Below, piece by piece: positions 5,804 through 22,982 of a DNA stretch of 59,473 bases; position 1 is the first letter of the stretch, and each line of letters starts with the position of its first letter. This DNA comes from Minisyncoccota bacterium (lineage in GTDB: Bacteria > Patescibacteriota > Minisyncoccia > UBA6257 > 1-14-0-10-44-23), in assembly GCA_041389085.1 (NCBI GenBank), contig JAWKSL010000003.1, forward strand, positions 1 through 59,473. The letters run 5' to 3'. The notes under the pieces were generated by a model. That model was not told where the DNA came from. It saw only the letters and a program-made list of their open reading frames with translations, and did no database searches. The position numbers were made by a program, and so were the translations under genes.

Positions 5804-6208
5804 TTATATCAAGCCTTCAGACTTGAGCTCGATAAATACGTCGTCTGGAATTTCTGGCCTCTCGCCTTCTTTTGTTTTCCCTGGGTAGCGCCAGGTGGAT
5901 ATCATAGTGATGCGGGATTTTTTACTACTCTCTTTATCTAAAATACTTTTCTTTTTTTGCCCCTGGTTTATAACATACATAATCCAAAGCTCTTCTTGGT
6001 CTGGGCCAGTCTGCTTTGAAGTAGCGCTTTTGTTTTTCTTTTTCGTGCGCATAGCCGCAATTGTGTTTGGCGCTATACCCTCCTCTACGCGTTCTGGGTT
6101 TCTAAAAATGCGATTTATCTGAGCTTGAGAAATGTGGTAGTAGAGCATTTTGTTTTTAATATGCATCGTCCAACTAAAGCGCTCATTGTTTTTTGGCAGT
6201 GTAAACAT
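5804..6208 (-). CDS. Hypothetical protein
   Basis: 134-aa ORF tightly packed after the upstream gene (stop/start spacing 1 nt). Lys-rich central segment. No family assigned. Confidence 0.65.
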   Translation of the reverse strand: MFTLPKNNERFSWTMHIKNKMLYYHISQAQINRIFRNPERVEEGIAPNTIAAMRTKKKNKSATSKQTGPDQEELWIMYVINQGQKKKSILDKESSKKSRITMISTWRYPGKTKEGERPEIPDDVFIELKSEGLI

Positions 6209-16747: not shown

Positions 16748-17890
16748 CTACCGAATTGTGGCCTGAAACTGCTCTACCGTCTGATTTTCTACTTCTTTCT
16801 GAATTGGCTCTACTTCTTCTGCGGTAAGAGTTTTGTCGATGCTGCGGTAGTGAATGCGGTAGGTGTAACTTACCTTGTTTTCGCCGAACTTTGCTGCGTC
16901 TTCGTATTTATCGAGCAGAGCTACCTCTTCTACAAGGTTGCCGCCGATGTCGCGGATAAGATCAAAATAGTTGTTTGGAACGAAGCTTTTATCCACGATG
17001 AAAGAAATGTCGCGTACTACTGGAGGGTACTTACTTACTTCTTTATATACGTTTCCGAGCTTGAGTTGCTTTACGACGCGGTCGTCTTTTGACCATAGGA
17101 GGCGAATGTCTGGGAGCTTCATGCTAATAATGGCGAGCCTCTCAAGACCGAATCCGAACGCCCAACCGGTGTAGTTGCTTGAATCTACGCCAAGCTTTTC
17201 AAGCACACTGCCTTTTACAACGCCAGAACCAAGTACTTCTACCCAGTGTCCGTCGATATTGATTTCCATTTCGAGACTTGGATCGGTGTATGGGAAAGTG
17301 TCTTTGTTGAAGCGATACTCGATATCGTCTCCGAATACAGTTTTTGCGATGTTTGCGAGAACTTCTTTTAAGTCTTCTACGCCAATAGTGCCTTTGTCTT
17401 TTGGTACGAGGTAGTAGCCGTCGATTTGGTGAAAGACGTTCATGTGGCGCTTATCGAGCTCATCTTTTCGATATACTTTCCCGTAGGTTAAAACTCCCAG
17501 CGTTTCGTTGTTGGCTATTTTCTTTTTTGCTTCTTCACTGTTGAGGTAGTAGTACCACGATACTGTTGTGTGTGGGCGAAGAATGTATTCGTCTGTAACG
17601 TAGTAGGTATCTGACTTGCTTCGTGCTGGGTGGTCAGCGGGAAAGTCGAAAAGGTCGAAGCTTTGAGCTACTGGCACTATTTCTGGAACCTGAACAACTG
17701 AAAAGTCTTTAAATTGTTCAAGGTTGGTTATCTTCTGCGCAAGTTCGTAAATTGGGCTACCTTCCGTACGAGAAAGGTCGGGCATGTCTAAAAATCGAAT
17801 CTGGCGCTGGCTCTCAGCGTCTGTTCGTGTTTGTAGCTCCTTCTTTAGCTCCTCTTCTTTTGTGAGATCTATTTTTATATATTCAGGCAT
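16748..17890 (-). CDS. pheS: Phenylalanine--tRNA ligase, single-chain mitochondrial-type (PheS core + C-terminal FDX-ACB domain)
   Basis: The catalytic core carries HPAR, FHQIDG and GFGLERLAI. The C-terminus DIRLLWSKDDRVVKQL...SKYPPVVRDISFIV...YFDLIRDIGGNLVEEVALLDKY...YRIHYRSIDKTLTAEEV parallels human FARS2. Confidence 0.85.
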   Translation of the reverse strand: MPEYIKIDLTKEEELKKELQTRTDAESQRQIRFLDMPDLSRTEGSPIYELAQKITNLEQFKDFSVVQVPEIVPVAQSFDLFDFPADHPARSKSDTYYVTDEYILRPHTTVSWYYYLNSEEAKKKIANNETLGVLTYGKVYRKDELDKRHMNVFHQIDGYYLVPKDKGTIGVEDLKEVLANIAKTVFGDDIEYRFNKDTFPYTDPSLEMEINIDGHWVEVLGSGVVKGSVLEKLGVDSSNYTGWAFGFGLERLAIISMKLPDIRLLWSKDDRVVKQLKLGNVYKEVSKYPPVVRDISFIVDKSFVPNNYFDLIRDIGGNLVEEVALLDKYEDAAKFGENKVSYTYRIHYRSIDKTLTAEEVEPIQKEVENQTVEQFQATIR

Positions 17891-17927
17891 ATTGTTGAGA
17901 ATACTGCTAATGGTACACTAGTAATAT

Positions 17928-18260
17928 ATGTTTGAGGATAGTATCGCTTCTTCTACTGCTGCACAAGCCCCGATTTTTATTGAATATACATTTTTGTGGG
18001 GCATCGGGCTTTTGGTTCTTTCTATTCTCGTTTCTCTTCTGTCTATGCGCATTTCAGGGCGACAGGCTCTTCTTTTTTGGCTTATCAATACTTCATTAAG
18101 TTTTAGCGCGCTCACCTTGATTGGCCAGTCATTTCCCCGATTTAACCAGTTTGTCGTTTTTGGTGTAATTTTTGCGATTATACTCGTACTTGCTGCAAGT
18201 GGAGCGGTTGCTCCAAAGAAAGAAAAGCCTGCTGAGGCTCCGCAGCCAAAAGAAGAATAA
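17928..18260 (+). CDS. Hypothetical membrane protein (3 TM)
   Basis: 110-aa hydrophobic ORF with a Lys/Pro/Glu-rich tail. Confidence 0.6.
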   Translation: MFEDSIASSTAAQAPIFIEYTFLWGIGLLVLSILVSLLSMRISGRQALLFWLINTSLSFSALTLIGQSFPRFNQFVVFGVIFAIILVLAASGAVAPKKEKPAEAPQPKEE

Positions 18261-18265
18261 ATGTG

Positions 18266-18339
18266 TGTCAGAGGGGAGACTTGAACTCCCGACCTCGGCG
18301 TTATGAATGCCGCGCTCTAACCAGCTGAGCTACTCTGAC
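18266..18339 (-). tRNA. tRNA-Met(CAT), elongator or Ile-lysidine type
   Basis: Hand-folded cloverleaf: GTCAGAG TA GCTC AGCTGGTTA GAGC G CGGCA TTCATAA CGCCG AGGTC GGGAG TTCAAGT CTCCC CTCTGAC A. No CCA is encoded. Confidence 0.85.
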
Positions 18340-18577
18340 TTATTTTTATATCCAAGAACTTCCTTCCCTGCCCCGACTTTAAGAACTTTTCTCGCTTCAT
18401 TGCCTCCTTTTTGTCGCCGTATTTTTCTTCGAGAATAAGTTTAAATGGCTTGTTTTCCCTTGTAAACTTATTTGATCCACTATTGTGTTCCTGTAATCGA
18501 ACGCTTGCCTGCTTGCTTGTGTAGCCTACGTATCTTTTACCATTTTTTAGGCTTTTTAGAACATAAACTGTGAACAT
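18317..18577 (-). CDS. GIY-YIG nuclease family protein (86 aa)
   Basis: FTVYVLKSLKNGKRYVGYTSKQASVRLQEHN is the GIY-YIG signature. The last 8 codons and the TAG stop are supplied by nt 1-23 of tRNA-Met. Confidence 0.85.
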   Translation of the reverse strand: MFTVYVLKSLKNGKRYVGYTSKQASVRLQEHNSGSNKFTRENKPFKLILEEKYGDKKEAMKREKFLKSGQGRKFLDIKISQSSSAG

Positions 18578-18594
18578 AGCGGTAATCTCTAACC

Positions 18595-18625
18595 CCAGCC
18601 AGAGGCTGGTCCGCCTTTGGCGGAA
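18595..18625 (-). repeat. 31-nt twin-hairpin module, copy 1
   Basis: TTCCGCCAAAGGCGGACCAGCCTCTGGCTGG (CCGCC-AAA-GGCGG and CCAGCC-TCT-GGCTGG), identical at 31/31 positions to 21652-21682. Confidence 0.9.
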
Positions 18626-18705
18626 GCTGAGCTACTCTGACATGTATCTTTAAATACTGGGAAATAATACTGAAAATTCCTTGTTTCTTCAAGTTTTATT
18701 GTATC

Positions 18706-18733
18706 AAAAAAGGCCCGATTCGGCCTTTTTTGA
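18706..18733. terminator. Bidirectional intrinsic terminator
   Basis: AAAAA-AGGCC-GATTC-GGCCT-TTTTT. Confidence 0.75.
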
Positions 18734-18752
18734 AAATGAGTTTTCTTTGGTG

Positions 18753-19112
18753 TTAACCCATTCGTCTTCCTTTGCCGAAACCGATAGCAAGGAATATAAC
18801 CGCGAGGAGAACGTGGAGGAGGTTGTCAGCCATGTTTGCCGCAAGAATTCCGTTCAAAAAGTCGCTTGCTATAAACCCAAGAACCGCTACGAGTCCGTAG
18901 ATAATTCCAAAGATCTGAGCAAATTGTCGTGCTCCCCTTTCTCCTTTTGCCGCGAACATAAGAGCTACAATACCGGAGAGAAGGTGGATGATGTTGTGCA
19001 CAGTATCAACTTCAAAGATGCCAAGAAGCATTCCATTTGAGGTTATTCCTGGCACGAAGCCAAGAATTCCGATGAGGATGAATACCCATCCGAGCAATTT
19101 CACTGTTTTCAT
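18753..19112 (-). CDS. DUF4383-like membrane protein
   Basis: 119 aa with 4 TM helices. The motifs FEVDTVHNIIHLLSG and DNLLHVLLA are typical of DUF4383. Confidence 0.7.
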   Translation of the reverse strand: MKTVKLLGWVFILIGILGFVPGITSNGMLLGIFEVDTVHNIIHLLSGIVALMFAAKGERGARQFAQIFGIIYGLVAVLGFIASDFLNGILAANMADNLLHVLLAVIFLAIGFGKGRRMG

Positions 19113-19232
19113 AGTTTTGCTTTATTGGTTTGTAATAATTCGGCCTTTTTGTTTTAGTGTGTTTTGTGCTGTCTTATATAGCTTTATTATAACAACAAAG
19201 CAGCCTCAAAAGGCTGCTTTACTGAATAAATG

Positions 19233-19304
19233 TTGCGGGGGTGGGAATCGAACCCACGGTCTGGTGGTTATGAGCCACCCGAGATACCATTTCTCCACCC
19301 CGCG
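19233..19304 (-). tRNA. tRNA-Met(CAT), initiator-like
   Basis: Fold: CGCGGGG TG GAGA AATGGTA TCTC G GGTGG CTCATAA CCACC AGACC GTGGG TTCGATT CCCAC CCCCGCA A. The C1:A72 mismatch is characteristic of bacterial initiator tRNA. Confidence 0.8.
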
Positions 19305-19355
19305 GTAGTGTTATTGATTGCTGTATTGTAGAATAAATATCGAATTTGTCAATTT

Positions 19356-20693
19356 ATGAAAACAGAAAATGTGCGTATTGGAATAATTGGTTTTGCCCGT
19401 GAAGGAAAAAGTTTGGCGGAATTTTTACTTACTCGCCTAAAGGGGTATTGCGAAATTACTTTCTTAGACCAGCGCACAATTAAATCTAGCGATCGCGACT
19501 CACGCTTTCACTACAAAACTGGGAAAAGCTACCTTTCTACTCTTAACTCTTTCGATATTGTTTTCCGCTCCCCTGGCGTTCCGTTCCTTACTAAGGAAAT
19601 ACAAGCCGCGAAAAAGAGCGGTGTCGCCATTTCAAGCGTGACAAACATTTTTTTCCAGGAAATACATACGCTGCGCCAGAAGAAAAACTCAGACTACCCG
19701 AAAATTATTGCGGTAACTGGCACTAAGGGCAAAGGAACTACCTCGACGCTCATCTACAACATGCTTAAGAAAGCTGGAAAGAAGGCGGTGCTTGCTGGAA
19801 ACATTGGAGTGCCGATGCTCGATGTGCTTTCGAAGGCAAAAAAGAGTGAGTTTATTGTTCTAGAGCTTTCAAGTTTTCAACTTCAGGATTTAAAACACAG
19901 CGCTGATGTAGCCGTGCTTGTACCAGTTTCGCCAGACCATCTCGACCACCACAAGACAATGGCTGAATACGTAAACGCAAAGGCGCAGCTTACCAAAACC
20001 CAGGTTAAGGGCTGCCGTGCATACTGCGTAGCTGGAAACAAGCTTTCGGAGAAAATTGTTTCTTTCTCTGCCGGTAAAAAGGTTTTTGTGAAGCCAGAAT
20101 CATTCAAGCTCTTTGACTCCTCTGATCTTTCTGTACCGGGTATGCACAACTTTGAGAATGCCGTACTTGCTGCGACGGTCGTTTCTGACCTTGGCATTGA
20201 TAAGGCTGCTATTGCTTCTGCGGCAAAGGTGTTTAAAGGGCTTTCACACCGATTGGAATTTGTGCGGAAGGTTTCTCATTCTAGCGCGCGCGTATCCGTC
20301 TTTGACGACAGCGCTGGAACAAACCCCATTACCTCTGTAGCTGCTGCCCGAGCATTTTCTATTCCTTCTATTGTAATGATTGGTGGAGTTGGAAAGGTTT
20401 CCTATGCGCCACTGCGTGAGCTCAAAAAGACTAACGCGTCTGCTGTAGTTCTTTTCGGCCGAGATGGTAAGAAGGCGCGCAAATTTATACCTCGACACAT
20501 TCAGGTTGTTGAAGCGGGCGGTAAGGACTTTTCAAAGATCGTTAGAACTGCGCTCGATCTTTCTCTGAAGCTTTCAGCTGAGCTTCATTCTGAAGTTGCA
20601 CTCCTTTTTTCACCAGCAAGCGCGAGCTTCGATATGTTTGAAAATGCGTATCAGCGAGGCGACCTATTTCAAGAGTTTGTAAAAAAAATGTAG
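19356..20693 (+). CDS. murD: UDP-N-acetylmuramoylalanine--D-glutamate ligase
   Basis: 445 aa, Mur ligase with AVTGTKGKGTTST P-loop and an N-terminal Rossmann-like GFAREGKS. Confidence 0.88.
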   Translation: MKTENVRIGIIGFAREGKSLAEFLLTRLKGYCEITFLDQRTIKSSDRDSRFHYKTGKSYLSTLNSFDIVFRSPGVPFLTKEIQAAKKSGVAISSVTNIFFQEIHTLRQKKNSDYPKIIAVTGTKGKGTTSTLIYNMLKKAGKKAVLAGNIGVPMLDVLSKAKKSEFIVLELSSFQLQDLKHSADVAVLVPVSPDHLDHHKTMAEYVNAKAQLTKTQVKGCRAYCVAGNKLSEKIVSFSAGKKVFVKPESFKLFDSSDLSVPGMHNFENAVLAATVVSDLGIDKAAIASAAKVFKGLSHRLEFVRKVSHSSARVSVFDDSAGTNPITSVAAARAFSIPSIVMIGGVGKVSYAPLRELKKTNASAVVLFGRDGKKARKFIPRHIQVVEAGGKDFSKIVRTALDLSLKLSAELHSEVALLFSPASASFDMFENAYQRGDLFQEFVKKM

Positions 20694-20726
20694 GGCCCGT
20701 GCGAGTTTCGCACAGACCCTTTGCAC

Positions 20727-21416
20727 TCATCCGAGCCAGAAGACTGCTGCATTCCTGCTTTGGTCTCCTCGCCGGTGAGAGTGGTAGGTGTATTCACCTT
20801 CCACCTTCGCACACGCGGTGCATCTTGCCTCGATGTTGGTGTAGTTCACCCGGATGCCGCTTCTGAGCATCTGCTCACGAATGAGCTTGATCAGGTTGAC
20901 CGTTGCCTTTGGCCCGGCGGCTTGACTCCCTTCTTTTTCGAGCAAACTCATCGCATGGGGAGCTGTGTAGCAGCACGGTCCGATTCCGTAGCCGATGAAG
21001 GCTTCGGTGAAATGCTTGCCGAATCGCTGCGCAATGCAGTCGATTAGACTGGGACGGCCCTGACCGGTGAGATCTACAAGGCTTCCGAGCCCACAGTGCG
21101 CGACTACCAGCTGTGTTTGGCTGGCAAGCGCAAGAATGGGGCAGTCGGCATTGCTGATGACTGCGGCCTGCCCGCGACCGACACTGACAGCGTCTGCCTG
21201 CTGGCAGCTGCGCCAGACGTTGGAGTCGATGGAGGAAAACGCTTCCTCCTGGCTCGGCCATAATGTGTCGCGGACAAAGGCGCAGCGAATCGAGTAGAGG
21301 TCGCTTCGTGTGGGCGACTTAGCCCGAAGCGCTTGCGCAAACTCCTGAGGCGACGCGAAATGCGCCGGCTTGAAGTCTCCCTGGCTCCTTCCGAGCAGGG
21401 CTGATCGGATTAGCAT
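20727..21416 (-). CDS. pgeF: YfiH/PgeF (DUF152) family protein; GC-rich outlier
   Basis: 229 aa with ADCPIL, VAHCGLGS and YSHRRGDQSRNAAV motifs of the purine nucleoside phosphorylase/laccase-domain YfiH family. G+C is visibly far above the flanking genes. Confidence 0.75.
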   Translation of the reverse strand: MLIRSALLGRSQGDFKPAHFASPQEFAQALRAKSPTRSDLYSIRCAFVRDTLWPSQEEAFSSIDSNVWRSCQQADAVSVGRGQAAVISNADCPILALASQTQLVVAHCGLGSLVDLTGQGRPSLIDCIAQRFGKHFTEAFIGYGIGPCCYTAPHAMSLLEKEGSQAAGPKATVNLIKLIREQMLRSGIRVNYTNIEARCTACAKVEGEYTYHSHRRGDQSRNAAVFWLG

Positions 21417-21472
21417 TTTCGGGTCCTCCTATGCCCTGCTGGGCTTTTTTAAAATACGTATTATATACTTTA

Positions 21473-21500
21473 TTGTCAAATAAATGGCTTGCGCTATACT
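21473..21500 (+). promoter_or_regulatory. Sigma70-like promoter upstream of tRNA-Asp
   Basis: TTGTCA-N16-TATACT. Confidence 0.5.
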
Positions 21501-21559
21501 AAGCCTTAGTGCATAATGTTTCTGTTCAATTTGTTAAGGGCCTAGTTTAATTTATTGGC

Positions 21560-21636
21560 GCGGGCGTAGCTCAGTTGGTTAGAGCGCTCCCCTGTCACGG
21601 GAGAGGTCGCCGGTTCAAATCCGGTCGCTCGCGCCA
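21560..21636 (+). tRNA. tRNA-Asp(GTC), CCA encoded
   Basis: Fold: GCGGGCG TA GCTC AGTTGGTTA GAGC G CTCCC CTGTCAC GGGAG AGGTC GCCGG TTCAAAT CCGGT CGCTCGC G CCA. The flanks (TTTAATTTATTGGC / GCCAATAAATTAAA) extend the acceptor helix. Confidence 0.9.
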
Positions 21637-21651
21637 ATAAATTAAATCAGT

Positions 21652-21682
21652 TTCCGCCAAAGGCGGACCAGCCTCTGGCTGG
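21652..21682 (+). repeat. 31-nt twin-hairpin module, copy 2
   Basis: Identical to the reverse complement of 18595-18625. It sits immediately 5' of GGTTAGAGC of a partial tRNA-Asp. Confidence 0.9.
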
Positions 21683-21741
21683 GGTTAGAGCGCTCCCCTG
21701 TCACGGGAGAGGTCGCCGGTTCAAATCCGGTCGCTCGCGCC
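21683..21741 (+). pseudogene. Partial tRNA-Asp copy (D-loop to 3' end, nt 18-76)
   Basis: 59 nt identical to 21577-21635. It lacks the 5' acceptor and D-stem strand. Confidence 0.85.
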
Positions 21742-21777
21742 CACGAAAGAAAATTCCGCCTTTGAGCGGTTTTTTAA

Positions 21778-21798
21778 TTCAAATCCGGTCGCTCGCGC
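21778..21798 (+). repeat. Third nested copy of the tRNA-Asp 3' end (T-loop to acceptor)
   Basis: TTCAAATCCGGTCGCTCGCGC, identical to 21614-21634. Each partial copy is followed by a hairpin plus T-run. Confidence 0.85.
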
Positions 21799-21868
21799 AG
21801 AGAAATAAAAGGCCGCTGGTAGGCGGTTTTTGTTCGCTTATCTTTATATTTTGAGCTACATTTGAGCT

Positions 21869-22066
21869 ATGGAAGTTTCAAATTGTGTGGCGCGGCTCAG
21901 GCAGGGGCGGCAAGAGACTCAAGAAGAACTTGCTCTTTCTGTGGGCGTTACGCGGCAAACTATAATTTCTATCGAAAAGGGGCGCTATATGCCCTCTATT
22001 TCCCTTGCGCTTAAACTTGCGAAGCATTTTAAGGTTTCAGTCGAAGACATTTTTAAACTACAATAA
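21869..22066 (+). CDS. XRE-family helix-turn-helix transcriptional regulator
   Basis: 65 aa with LRQGRQETQEELALSVGVTRQTIISIEKGRYMPSISLALKLAKHF, a Cro/C1-type HTH. Confidence 0.85.
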   Translation: MEVSNCVARLRQGRQETQEELALSVGVTRQTIISIEKGRYMPSISLALKLAKHFKVSVEDIFKLQ

Positions 22067-22071
22067 ATCAT

Positions 22072-22440
22072 ATGAAAGCCTCTCCACTTAAAAGCGAAAT
22101 AACCCTTACCGCACTTCTCCTTGCGGGGCTGTTTGTGTTTATCGATCCGTTTGATCTTTGGATGAGTAGCTCCTCTTCAAAAGCTATCGGGTTTGCTATC
22201 GTTGCTTTTCTTTTTCTTCTTATTGTTTTTTCCTGGAAGCAGAAGGCGCGCGATGAACGCGAGCTTTTAAATAGCTACTTTTCCGACCGGCTTGCTTACC
22301 TTGTAGCTATAAGCTCACTGTTCTTCGTCTTTGTGTACCAGGTTTTTATGGGGCTTCCGGCGGTTATAACTGCATCGCTTTTGGCGCTGGTAGTTATCTC
22401 TAAGCTCATAGCAGTCATTTTTACCTCTACTTTTCGATAG
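22072..22440 (+). CDS. Small membrane protein paired with the XRE regulator
   Basis: 122 aa with 4 TM helices, starting 6 nt after the regulator stop. Confidence 0.65.
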   Translation: MKASPLKSEITLTALLLAGLFVFIDPFDLWMSSSSSKAIGFAIVAFLFLLIVFSWKQKARDERELLNSYFSDRLAYLVAISSLFFVFVYQVFMGLPAVITASLLALVVISKLIAVIFTSTFR

Positions 22441-22526
22441 TTTTCCCCATTTTTAATGTAAAGTATGCTTTACATTGTTTTGATGTGCTTTTATAATGCG
22501 GTTAATTAGCAATTAACCTTTAACTT

Positions 22527-22982
22527 ATGCAAAAGAAAACGAGTGGATTTTTAGTAATTCTTATCCTTATCGCTCTTGGTTTCGTATTTTTCTTCAATAT
22601 GAACGATGAGATGGAGCAGATGGACTCATCTGGCGAAATGATGGAAATGAACGATGGTGATGCGATGGACGAAATGGGCTCTGAGGGCTACCAAGAATAC
22701 AGCGAAGAGGCTCTTGCAAGTGTTGAGGGCCCTGTATTATTTTTTCACGCTGTTTGGTGCCCAACCTGCAAATCGCTTGATAACGACATAATGGCAAACC
22801 TTTCCGATATACCGTCTGACGTGACCATACTCAAAGTAGACTACGACTCTTACACTGATCTGAAGAAAAAGTACGGAGTAACAACACAACACACACTTGT
22901 ACAAGTTGATAATGAGGGAAATTTAATCAATAAGTGGCTTGGAAGCCCTACCCTCGAGGCGCTTCTTGCTAAGGTTCAATAA
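22527..22982 (+). CDS. Membrane-anchored thioredoxin-like protein
   Basis: TM anchor, Met/Asp/Glu-rich linker, WCPTC active site. Confidence 0.8.
   Translation: MQKKTSGFLVILILIALGFVFFFNMNDEMEQMDSSGEMMEMNDGDAMDEMGSEGYQEYSEEALASVEGPVLFFHAVWCPTCKSLDNDIMANLSDIPSDVTILKVDYDSYTDLKKKYGVTTQHTLVQVDNEGNLINKWLGSPTLEALLAKVQ

Follow-up and report, generated by a model that had tools for sequence, protein, structure and literature searches.

Short palindromic repeats and selfish nuclease cassettes are known in several kinds. The element considered here is a 30-bp twin palindrome that occurs twice in the window, by which we mean the whole 59,473-nucleotide (nt) stretch of Minisyncoccota DNA analysed, once in a partial copy of tRNA-Asp beside the intact gene and once in a partial copy of tRNA-Met that precedes a small open reading frame (ORF) of the GIY-YIG nuclease superfamily. 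Together, palindrome and cassette resemble the known kinds but fail defining features of each. The repetitive extragenic palindromes and bacterial interspersed mosaic elements (REP/BIME) of proteobacteria are likewise short, GC-rich palindromic units, often paired, that occur in many dispersed copies and are tied to one small, repeat-flanked gene of nuclease type. In that system the enzyme is a Y1 HUH transposase, the REP-associated tyrosine transposase (RAYT), whereas the ORF recurrently linked to the element here is GIY-YIG, with the caution that RAYT genes were not searched for genome-wide. REP/BIME units have a GT[AG]G head, are intergenic and are species-specific in sequence; the present units lack such a head, are 15 nt long, lie in many cases within ORFs and tRNA loops and carry one sequence across phyla. 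Rickettsia palindromic elements (RPE) also give translated, in-frame insertions and also occur in RNA genes, but they are approximately 100-150 nt long, are restricted to Rickettsia and have no known associated nuclease, compared with 30 nt and a cross-phylum range here. The GC clusters, double-hairpin elements and repetitive hairpin-forming elements of mitochondria place two adjacent GC-rich hairpins in AT-richer DNA; there is evidence of their mobility, and their sites include the vicinity of endonuclease ORFs as well as RNA genes and the DNA adjoining these (PMC4478555, PMC2800124). They differ in being organellar, in their sequences and in having neither a partial tRNA beside an intact copy nor a UPF0213 partner.

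SegB of phage T4 is a selfish GIY-YIG gene that resides in a tRNA gene cluster and for which break repair is the presumed means of spread (PMC2330249). It is phage-borne and has a DNA-binding domain, whereas the ORF in the window encodes a bare 86-aa catalytic domain and overlaps the tRNA gene that follows it. In the att duplications left by integrases, uninterrupted repeats flank 9-121 kb and an integrase (10.1101/2022.07.05.498093); here the cargo is 10-300 nt with no integrase, both 5' and 3' fragments occur, and a palindrome sits in a loop of the fragment. In rRNA genes of the candidate phyla radiation (CPR), GIY-YIG ORFs are present in non-intron insertions, and most insertions fall at the tips or bases of stem-loops (PMC11270868). 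The phylum, the protein superfamily and the stem-loops of stable-RNA genes are common to both cases, but that study concerns rRNA rather than tRNA, and since a term search of PMC11270868 finds no mention of tRNA or hairpin, the twin palindrome and the target duplication are apparently not described there. GIY-YIG genes are also reported to have been horizontally transferred out of Patescibacteria (PMC12455944), and both reports would fit the picture of a nuclease with its element. No description of the element or the cassette was found in full-text literature searches for the encoded peptides, for GIY-YIG together with tRNA or for the CPR, and there is a fair chance that this is a distinct mobile system.

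The interpretation we favour, by a modest degree, is that of a recurrent selfish element at tRNA genes, with the tRNA-Asp stretch as its ORF-less form. The parts of this family would be the 30-bp twin palindrome, a duplicated piece of a host tRNA with the palindrome in a loop and, often, an 80-90-aa GIY-YIG gene of the UPF0213/Slx1 type. In the window, tRNA-Met would carry the full version and tRNA-Asp a version with 10 nt of cargo and an older 21-nt repeat behind it. The anatomy described below recurs in many phyla, with the insertion point in a loop and a functional copy of the tRNA spared.

The sequence-only reading had described an intact tRNA-Asp followed by two nested partial copies of its 3' end, and each item of that description was recovered at the same positions. 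The intact tRNA-Asp(GTC), with an encoded CCA, occupies 21560-21636 on the plus strand (ARAGORN; Rfam tRNA, 70.2 bits), as do all the features that follow except the palindrome itself, to which no strand is assigned. A promoter-like site, TTGTCA-16-TATACT (21473-21500, from a consensus scan only), lies 5' of the gene, and a leader, TTTAATTTATTGGC (21546-21559), directly precedes it; the reverse complement of this leader recurs right after the tRNA, as seen in a repeat search and in a fold with an extended stem. Behind the intact gene come a 10-nt filler, ATAAATTAAA (21637-21646), recognized from the sequence and its inverted-repeat match as the new junction of the younger duplication, and then TCAGTT (21647-21652), which is tRNA-Asp nt 12-17 and forms a short tRNA flank on the cargo side of the palindrome. 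The 30-nt twin palindrome, TCCGCCAAAGGCGGA plus CCAGCCTCTGGCTGG (21653-21682; 49.2 bits, E=1e-10), separates T17 from G18 of the D-loop and is followed by partial copy 2, comprising nt 18-76 (21683-21741), which gives a partial Rfam tRNA match of 33 bits over model positions 8-63. A terminator-like spacer with hairpin CCGCCTTTGAGCGG and a T-run (21742-21777) leads to partial copy 3, the older repeat, which runs from T-loop to acceptor end (nt 55-75; 21778-21798), and a second spacer with a hairpin and T-run closes the array (21799-21835).

Copy 2 is identical to the gene at 59 of 59 positions, with zero mismatches, and when the palindrome is deleted in silico the junction matches tRNA-Asp nt 12-62 without a mismatch. 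A GC hairpin and T-run stand 3' of each partial copy, the two spacers being 73% alike. The module shared with the tRNA-Met locus is identical at 31 of 31 positions (21652-21682, plus strand, against 18595-18625, minus strand), where none is expected in shuffles, and the two loci share 44 nt once the D-loop flanks are counted. As a shared 31-mer the module therefore stands as first described, but the unit inserted is 30 nt (21653-21682). Its placement at the D-loop position behind TCAG is also correct: TCAGTT is tRNA-Asp nt 12-17, the insertion falls exactly at T17/G18, and both copies in the window occupy that same point of a D-loop. A covariance model run over the entire window for further degenerate copies returned these two only.

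The joint of intact gene and copy 2 is informative on history. Leader and post-tRNA sequence form an inverted repeat with 21-nt arms that are 95% complementary, and the new joint reads GCCAATAAATTAAA, which is the leader TTTAATTTATTGGC in reverse complement. An older event seems to have duplicated a unit from T-loop to terminator, giving copy 3, the flank of which has since diverged to 73%. A younger event would then have made copy 2, the presumed ancestral downstream flank and terminator staying with copy 2, and the promoter and leader with the intact gene; it would have connected the gene's 3' end with nt 12 in the interrupted copy by way of a short inverted copy of the leader. In our reading, repair synthesis switched templates at this joint, across the inverted repeat of the acceptor stem. 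The filler, being an inverted leader copy, points to break repair with template switching rather than a conservative integrase crossover. At the same place, positions 21633-21646 are the exact reverse complement of 21546-21559 (14 nt) and give an acceptor helix 21 bp long. The intact tRNA-Asp owes its encoded CCA to the inverted leader copy; copy 2 reads GCC-CAC and a relative, L165, reads GCC-TCG.

At tRNA-Met, on the minus strand, the order is a promoter-like site, nt 1-17 of the tRNA, the element, nt 18-25, nine nucleotides, the ORF and the intact tRNA. The promoter-like site (18664-18692) again comes from a consensus scan only and is 5' of the partial tRNA-Met nt 1-17 (18625-18641). The second 30-nt twin palindrome (18595-18624, no strand assigned), independently assembled in L166, separates nt 17 from nt 18 of the D-loop, and the short flank before the cargo, GGTTAGAG (18587-18594), is an 8-nt exact match to nt 18-25 of the intact gene. 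The 86-aa GIY-YIG ORF, UPF0213/Slx1-like (18317-18577; PF01541), overlaps the intact tRNA-Met(CAT) (18265-18339; ARAGORN, Rfam) by 23 nt (18317-18339), and its stop codon is the TAG of the D-loop sequence GGTTAGAGC. Since that stop lies within the tRNA D-loop, RNase P cleavage of the tRNA would remove it.

The 86-aa protein scores 51.8 bits against PF01541, for which the cut-off is 22.6, and is a bare catalytic domain with no other Pfam domain; in particular, Pfam finds no C-terminal DNA-binding domain of the kind present in I-TevI and Seg proteins. Its closest relatives of solved structure are the UPF0213 proteins 1zg2 (E=1.8e-14) and 1ywl (2.6e-12), followed by SLX1 (2.4e-6) and, marginally, I-TevI (0.061). 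Against the group I intron endonuclease family TIGR01453 it reaches 17 bits, compared with a cut-off of 56. Residues Tyr5, Tyr16, Arg27, His31 and Glu63 (Y5, Y16, R27, H31, E63), which we take to be the catalytic positions of the GIY-YIG fold, are invariant in eight aligned tRNA-linked ORFs. Among 1.84 billion representatives, 4,126 clusters are homologous at E<=1e-3 and 328 at E<=1e-10. In the best 150 database homologues (P0001-P0150), 46 have N-terminal extensions of at least 15 residues, some of which read like translated tRNA T-arms (..GSNP.., ..GSSP..) or hairpin units (..SAKGGSASGG.., ..PPEAGPPSAE..); gene callers extend the start codon back through the tRNA fragment. A phage origin was considered and rejected: 50,697 phage records gave no protein match and 2.9 million viral contigs a single match to the element.

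The palindrome consists of two 15-nt units, TCCGCC-AAA-GGCGGA and CCAGCC-TCT-GGCTGG, each with a 6-bp stem and a 3-nt loop, and the consensus of the unit is YCNGCC-N3-GGCNGR. A stem-only pattern finds the pair at 120 loci or more in contigs representing one genome per species. The taxa include many classes of Patescibacteria, Omnitrophota, Planctomycetota including Brocadiia, Verrucomicrobiota, Kiritimatiellia, Lentisphaerales and Victivallales, together with metagenome-assembled genomes labelled Gamma- or Pseudomonadota, Bdellovibrionales and Leptospira, some of which labels are possibly unreliable. Binning does not account for the range of phyla, because several matches are on contigs 250-950 kb long. 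The flanks are constrained: 89% of copies have T at -2, 94% have T or C at -1 and 94% have a purine at +2, and the base at +1 is one other than T (G, C or A). The loops of paired units show an antiparallel complementarity of 249 against 215 +/- 6 in shuffles, an excess that indicates the second unit to be roughly an inverted copy of the first. In a comparison with miniature inverted-repeat transposable elements, no target-site duplication is visible at tRNA sites for which the empty sequence is known and no parent insertion sequence (IS) was found. Hairpin-end (P-nucleotide) footprints of a cut-and-paste transposon were also discounted, the palindromes having the same sequence everywhere rather than mirroring their flanks.

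Further tRNA-associated copies of the module, on which the sequence-only reading depended, clearly exist. What that reading missed is that the module is a widespread element of its own and is found in protein genes as well. After removal of the element in silico, 30 of 127 junctions (approximately 24%) read as continuous tRNA, whereas tRNA makes up 0.9% of the DNA sampled; approximately 22 of the 30 are strong and eight are 13-nt matches at E=0.008, six of those belonging to one IS-borne repeat. The insertion points mapped are in the D-loop, the anticodon loop or stem and the T-loop, with the element facing either way. What is interrupted is in every case a fragment, adjoined by an intact tRNA of the same or a related kind, and removal of the element restores a complete tRNA at none of 130 sites (ARAGORN). 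A tRNA intron, a split tRNA and a permuted tRNA were thereby rejected, because deletion of the element never yields a tRNA and copy 2 is without nt 1-11.

The connection with the nuclease comes from 42 relatives of the ORF, collected with their flanks by means of a three-sequence protein alignment. Approximately 36 of them have a partial copy of a tRNA on one side and an intact copy of it on the other, and in about as many (some 36 of the 42) the ORF ends at or within the intact tRNA, be it Ile, Asn, Arg, Val, Ala, Lys, Pro, Asp or another; some 20 of the ORFs use T8-A9-G10 of the tRNA itself as their stop codon. The twin hairpin is present in the 5' fragment of the same tRNA, no more than 120 nt upstream of the start codon, in at least 29 of the 42, and a scan of the set for twin hairpins returned 73 matches, with most elements counted on both strands, against 0.4 expected. 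The stems vary by compensatory change (CCGCC/GGCGG, CAGCC/GGCTG, CGACC/GGTCG, CGTCC/GGACG and others), both sides changing in 8 of 12 pairs, and this shows pairing, rather than sequence, to be what is kept in the hairpins linked to GIY-YIG genes. In more than 20 loci just 4-12 nt of tRNA separate element and cargo; since this length varies, cleavage at one fixed distance was discarded as an explanation, that range being all that can be claimed.

A mirror arrangement, which we term the 3' type, has the intact tRNA first, then cargo, a few nucleotides of tRNA, the element and the rest of the tRNA to its 3' end. Locus L140 (Omnitrophota, tRNA-Val) has an ORF as cargo and then GCTCAGTT, the element and GGTTAGAGC, which is the D-loop junction of the window; its ORF continues across the element as far as its stop codon, the TAG of GGTTAGAGC, and a 33-nt downstream flank is duplicated as well. 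Locus L152 (tRNA-Met) is also of the 3' type with an ORF as cargo, while L029 and L074, the latter with two tandem units, have short non-coding cargo only, and by eye the same ORF-less form is seen in L041, L058, L061, L080 and L085. Three more distant tRNA-Asp loci were found by way of the 3' half of the tRNA. Downstream of the tRNA-Asp of L168 (73 of 76 nt matching) come first a GIY-YIG ORF, 42% identical, and next 16 nt that repeat the 3' end of the tRNA, the element being absent; L165 has a 19-nt tRNA copy approximately 100 nt downstream of tRNA-Asp and L167 has none. The earlier suggestion that the module ties the tRNA-Asp locus to the GIY-YIG element is thus upheld by the twin hairpins of at least 29 of the 42 relatives, by the ORF-bearing L140 and L152 and by L168, and its description as a solo or decayed copy is reasonable given ORF-bearing loci of the same geometry. 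We consider it somewhat probable that the tRNA-Asp stretch is an ORF-less member of this family, with 10 nt of cargo, to which an older 21-nt repeat has been added.

We infer that the element moves and that the nuclease is the driver. The DNA of stable-RNA genes, through the cloverleaf arms of tRNAs, or else the palindrome would extrude hairpins, and at these or a few bases away a structure-specific nuclease would break the DNA, the best candidate being the Slx1-like GIY-YIG protein supplied in trans by the tRNA-Met cassette. Gene conversion or template switching on a sister or ectopic copy would then mend the break, copy the palindrome with any cargo and leave a partial duplication, and selection would retain only those products in which one tRNA copy is intact. 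In the 5' type the displaced fragment probably keeps the tRNA promoter, so that the ORF is probably co-transcribed with the tRNA; a promoter and a stop codon both supplied by the tRNA would fit a selfish cassette.

A wider proposal is offered tentatively. UPF0213-type GIY-YIG nucleases and 15-bp hairpin units might constitute an undescribed cross-phylum mobile system, a nuclease-driven counterpart of REP/RAYT. Such a system would target hairpin loops in stable-RNA gene DNA, survive by duplicating the part of the tRNA that it interrupts, borrow the tRNA promoter and use the TAG as a stop codon, and insertions of SAKGGPASGW in MiaA, DnaJ and the CCA-adding enzyme would be its by-product. Under this proposal UPF0213/YhbQ, a widespread family of unknown function with Slx1 as its eukaryotic relative, would be assigned a selfish lifestyle and a defined DNA partner, and if true this would be the first biological role for part of that large family. 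It would also account for certain partial tRNA genes, a class that is mis-annotated by tRNA finders and gene callers. The same 30 bases in Patescibacteria, Omnitrophota and the Planctomycetes-Verrucomicrobia group imply horizontal spread or an unusually strong constraint. A mobile palindrome could write one 10-residue loop into essential proteins, and the element offers a compact marker for strain-level structural variation at tRNA loci.

The protein insertions are of one kind. Where a long ORF spans the element it is mostly read in one frame and orientation, giving S-A-x-G-G-P-A-x-G-W, typically SAKGGPASGW. In MiaA of L056 there is a clean 10-residue insertion between LAKEF and NG-EIIS, as judged by alignment to PDB code 2qgn, and the same codon of miaA is occupied in three taxa (L056, 5813-5842; L020, 472-501; L028, 273-302). 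An in-frame insertion at the same codon is also seen in the CCA-adding enzyme, in the G/F region of DnaJ in several taxa and in one further gene, all identities other than MiaA being assigned by eye. Further loci in protein genes are L002, L010, L051 and L055 and approximately ten in dnaJ, the flanking codons of which have diverged.

Several observations weigh against a nuclease-driven selfish element and should be considered together. Approximately 95% of the element loci sampled have no GIY-YIG gene within 8 kb, and GIY-YIG cassettes without the twin hairpin occur in L131, L154, L161, L162 and L168, so the two parts can exist apart. The presence of solo elements and cassettes at separate loci of three genomes speaks for an association, but this co-occurrence is uncorrected for shared ancestry. 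Both loops have the same sequences in the two window copies, a combination found in approximately 11% of all copies, and the identity of the two is thus weak evidence of recent copying. In miaA, dnaJ and other genes, several taxa have the element at one and the same codon, and this could reflect old vertical inheritance rather than recent mobility. We caution that the covariation set was picked by a palindrome scan, which makes the percentage paired circular, and that the 4-12-nt regularity of the flank is a descriptive figure. No pair of occupied and empty alleles was found in close strains. Finally, the independent short-read contig that covers the tRNA-Asp repeats, L163, stops within the repeat short of the module, and the junction of module and copy 2 is without independent confirmation.

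The main rival, which we judge possible but unlikely, is that the twin palindrome is an independent repeat, self-spreading or mobilized by the host in the manner of REP, RPE or mitochondrial GC clusters, and that the GIY-YIG cassette creates dispensable tRNA fragments while taking no part in moving it. The distance of most copies from any GIY-YIG gene, the cassettes without a palindrome and the carriage of the element within a DDE-transposase IS in Candidatus Moanabacter are all as this account would have it, and the target motif of the element, TT|R, occurs naturally in the D-loop, the anticodon loop and the T-loop. It is not obvious, however, why passive accumulation should place the element at a distance of 4-12 nt from the breakpoint of the duplication, as is seen in more than 20 independent loci. 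Partial copies that have the element and very short cargo but no ORF are also common, and the phyla with the element overlap closely with those that have this GIY-YIG clade.

The sequence-only reading regarded the nested repeats as classic scars of serial integration and excision. On this account they are attL/attR-type scars left in the 3' half of tRNA-Asp by tyrosine-integrase elements that integrated there and have since been lost by deletion or excision, and we think it improbable. Direct repeats of a 3' tRNA segment are indeed present in copies 2 and 3, a comparable 19-nt copy lies approximately 100 nt downstream of tRNA-Asp in L165, and partial tRNA genes derived from integrated elements are common in prokaryotes (10.1101/2022.07.05.498093). 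Copy 3, 21 nt from T-loop to 3' end, looks like a conventional att core, and to that extent the description survives. Copy 2 does not conform, since it begins in the D-arm, is interrupted by a palindrome and is joined through filler that is an inverted copy of the leader. The cargo is 10 nt and 36 nt, compared with 9-121 kb in the cases cited in the same study, and conservative excision leaves no scar. No integrase is present among the nine ORFs scanned between 17.9 and 24.6 kb, which have housekeeping Pfam domains or none and include MurD, a YfiH-like protein, a helix-turn-helix protein, thioredoxins and DsbD. The classic interpretation is accordingly not sustained for the locus as a whole, and a selfish element duplicating its host tRNA remains the reading we prefer.

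That the module-bearing copy is a functional RNA, serving in processing or termination, as a tRNA-like decoy or as one half of a tRNA that is split or contains an intron, we regard as very unlikely. No terminator is seen between tRNA-Asp and copy 2, by sequence and terminator scan, so the two are probably co-transcribed, and the region of tRNA-Asp and its copies folds more stably than shuffles (z = -5.45), but that score is expected from tRNA sequence and palindromes alone. Copy 2, without nt 1-11, can have no acceptor stem, removal of the element restores no tRNA at any locus, and the same 30 nt are translated within proteins. An Rfam 15 scan of 17500-22500 gave tRNA as the only significant family, two other matches having E above 0.1.

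The assembly was compared with independent data. Short-read assembly L163 (SRR32608987) is 99.8% identical over 21712-22694 and includes copy 3, which it thereby confirms, together with the end of copy 2 and the junction unique to that copy. L166, from a third data set, is 99.94% identical over 16817-20037 and contains the whole tRNA-Met/GIY-YIG cassette with its module. A metagenome scan for the copy-2 junction, GGTCGCTCGCGCCCACGAAAGAAAA, gave no match. The upstream 229-aa YfiH-like protein has no relatives in 185,579 species genomes, that exact protein not being on record, and no close relative gave an empty-site comparison for the tRNA-Asp locus. Duplication of the tRNA-Asp repeats in assembly is the least credible explanation of all: L163 does break within the repeat and leaves the junction of module and copy 2 unsupported, but the copy 2 and copy 3 junctions and the entire tRNA-Met cassette recur in two data sets at 99.8-99.9% identity and the same architecture is found in dozens of unrelated assemblies.

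Some minor features can be added. The hairpin TCCGCCTTTGAGCGG at 21754-21769, in the first spacer of the tRNA-Asp locus, differs by approximately one inserted base, by eye, from the reverse complement of the first palindromic unit, TCCGCCTTTGGCGGA, and may be a decayed single 15-nt unit that now serves as a terminator. Single 15-nt units, sometimes with a 7-nt tail (for example CTAAAGA), are also present at a second site of the same partial tRNA copies, in L047 (4436-4450) and, upstream of the ORF, in L137, L127, L142 and L150, the fragments gathering several hairpins. In Candidatus Moanabacter the palindrome hitch-hikes in another mobile element, lying approximately 140 nt after a 556-aa DDE_Tnp_1 transposase ORF within a multicopy 2.3-kb IS; such copies are found in L031 (3358-3386 and 5669-5697) and in L008, L012, L040, L064, L087, L110 and L119.

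Beside the cassettes of L135, L136 and L127 the intact tRNA-Asn seems, by eye, to contain a group I-like intron after GGCTGT in the anticodon loop. ARAGORN fails on these tRNA-Asn genes, and the start of the intron is the point at which the cassette is joined in the partial copies. Rfam calls a group I intron in L165 (10751-10950). In the same contig the spacer between tRNA-Asp and its 19-nt copy has, at 5940-6030, an apparent reverse-oriented T-arm fragment of another tRNA (GGCAGGATTTGAACC), and this spacer appears to be a graveyard of tRNA pieces.

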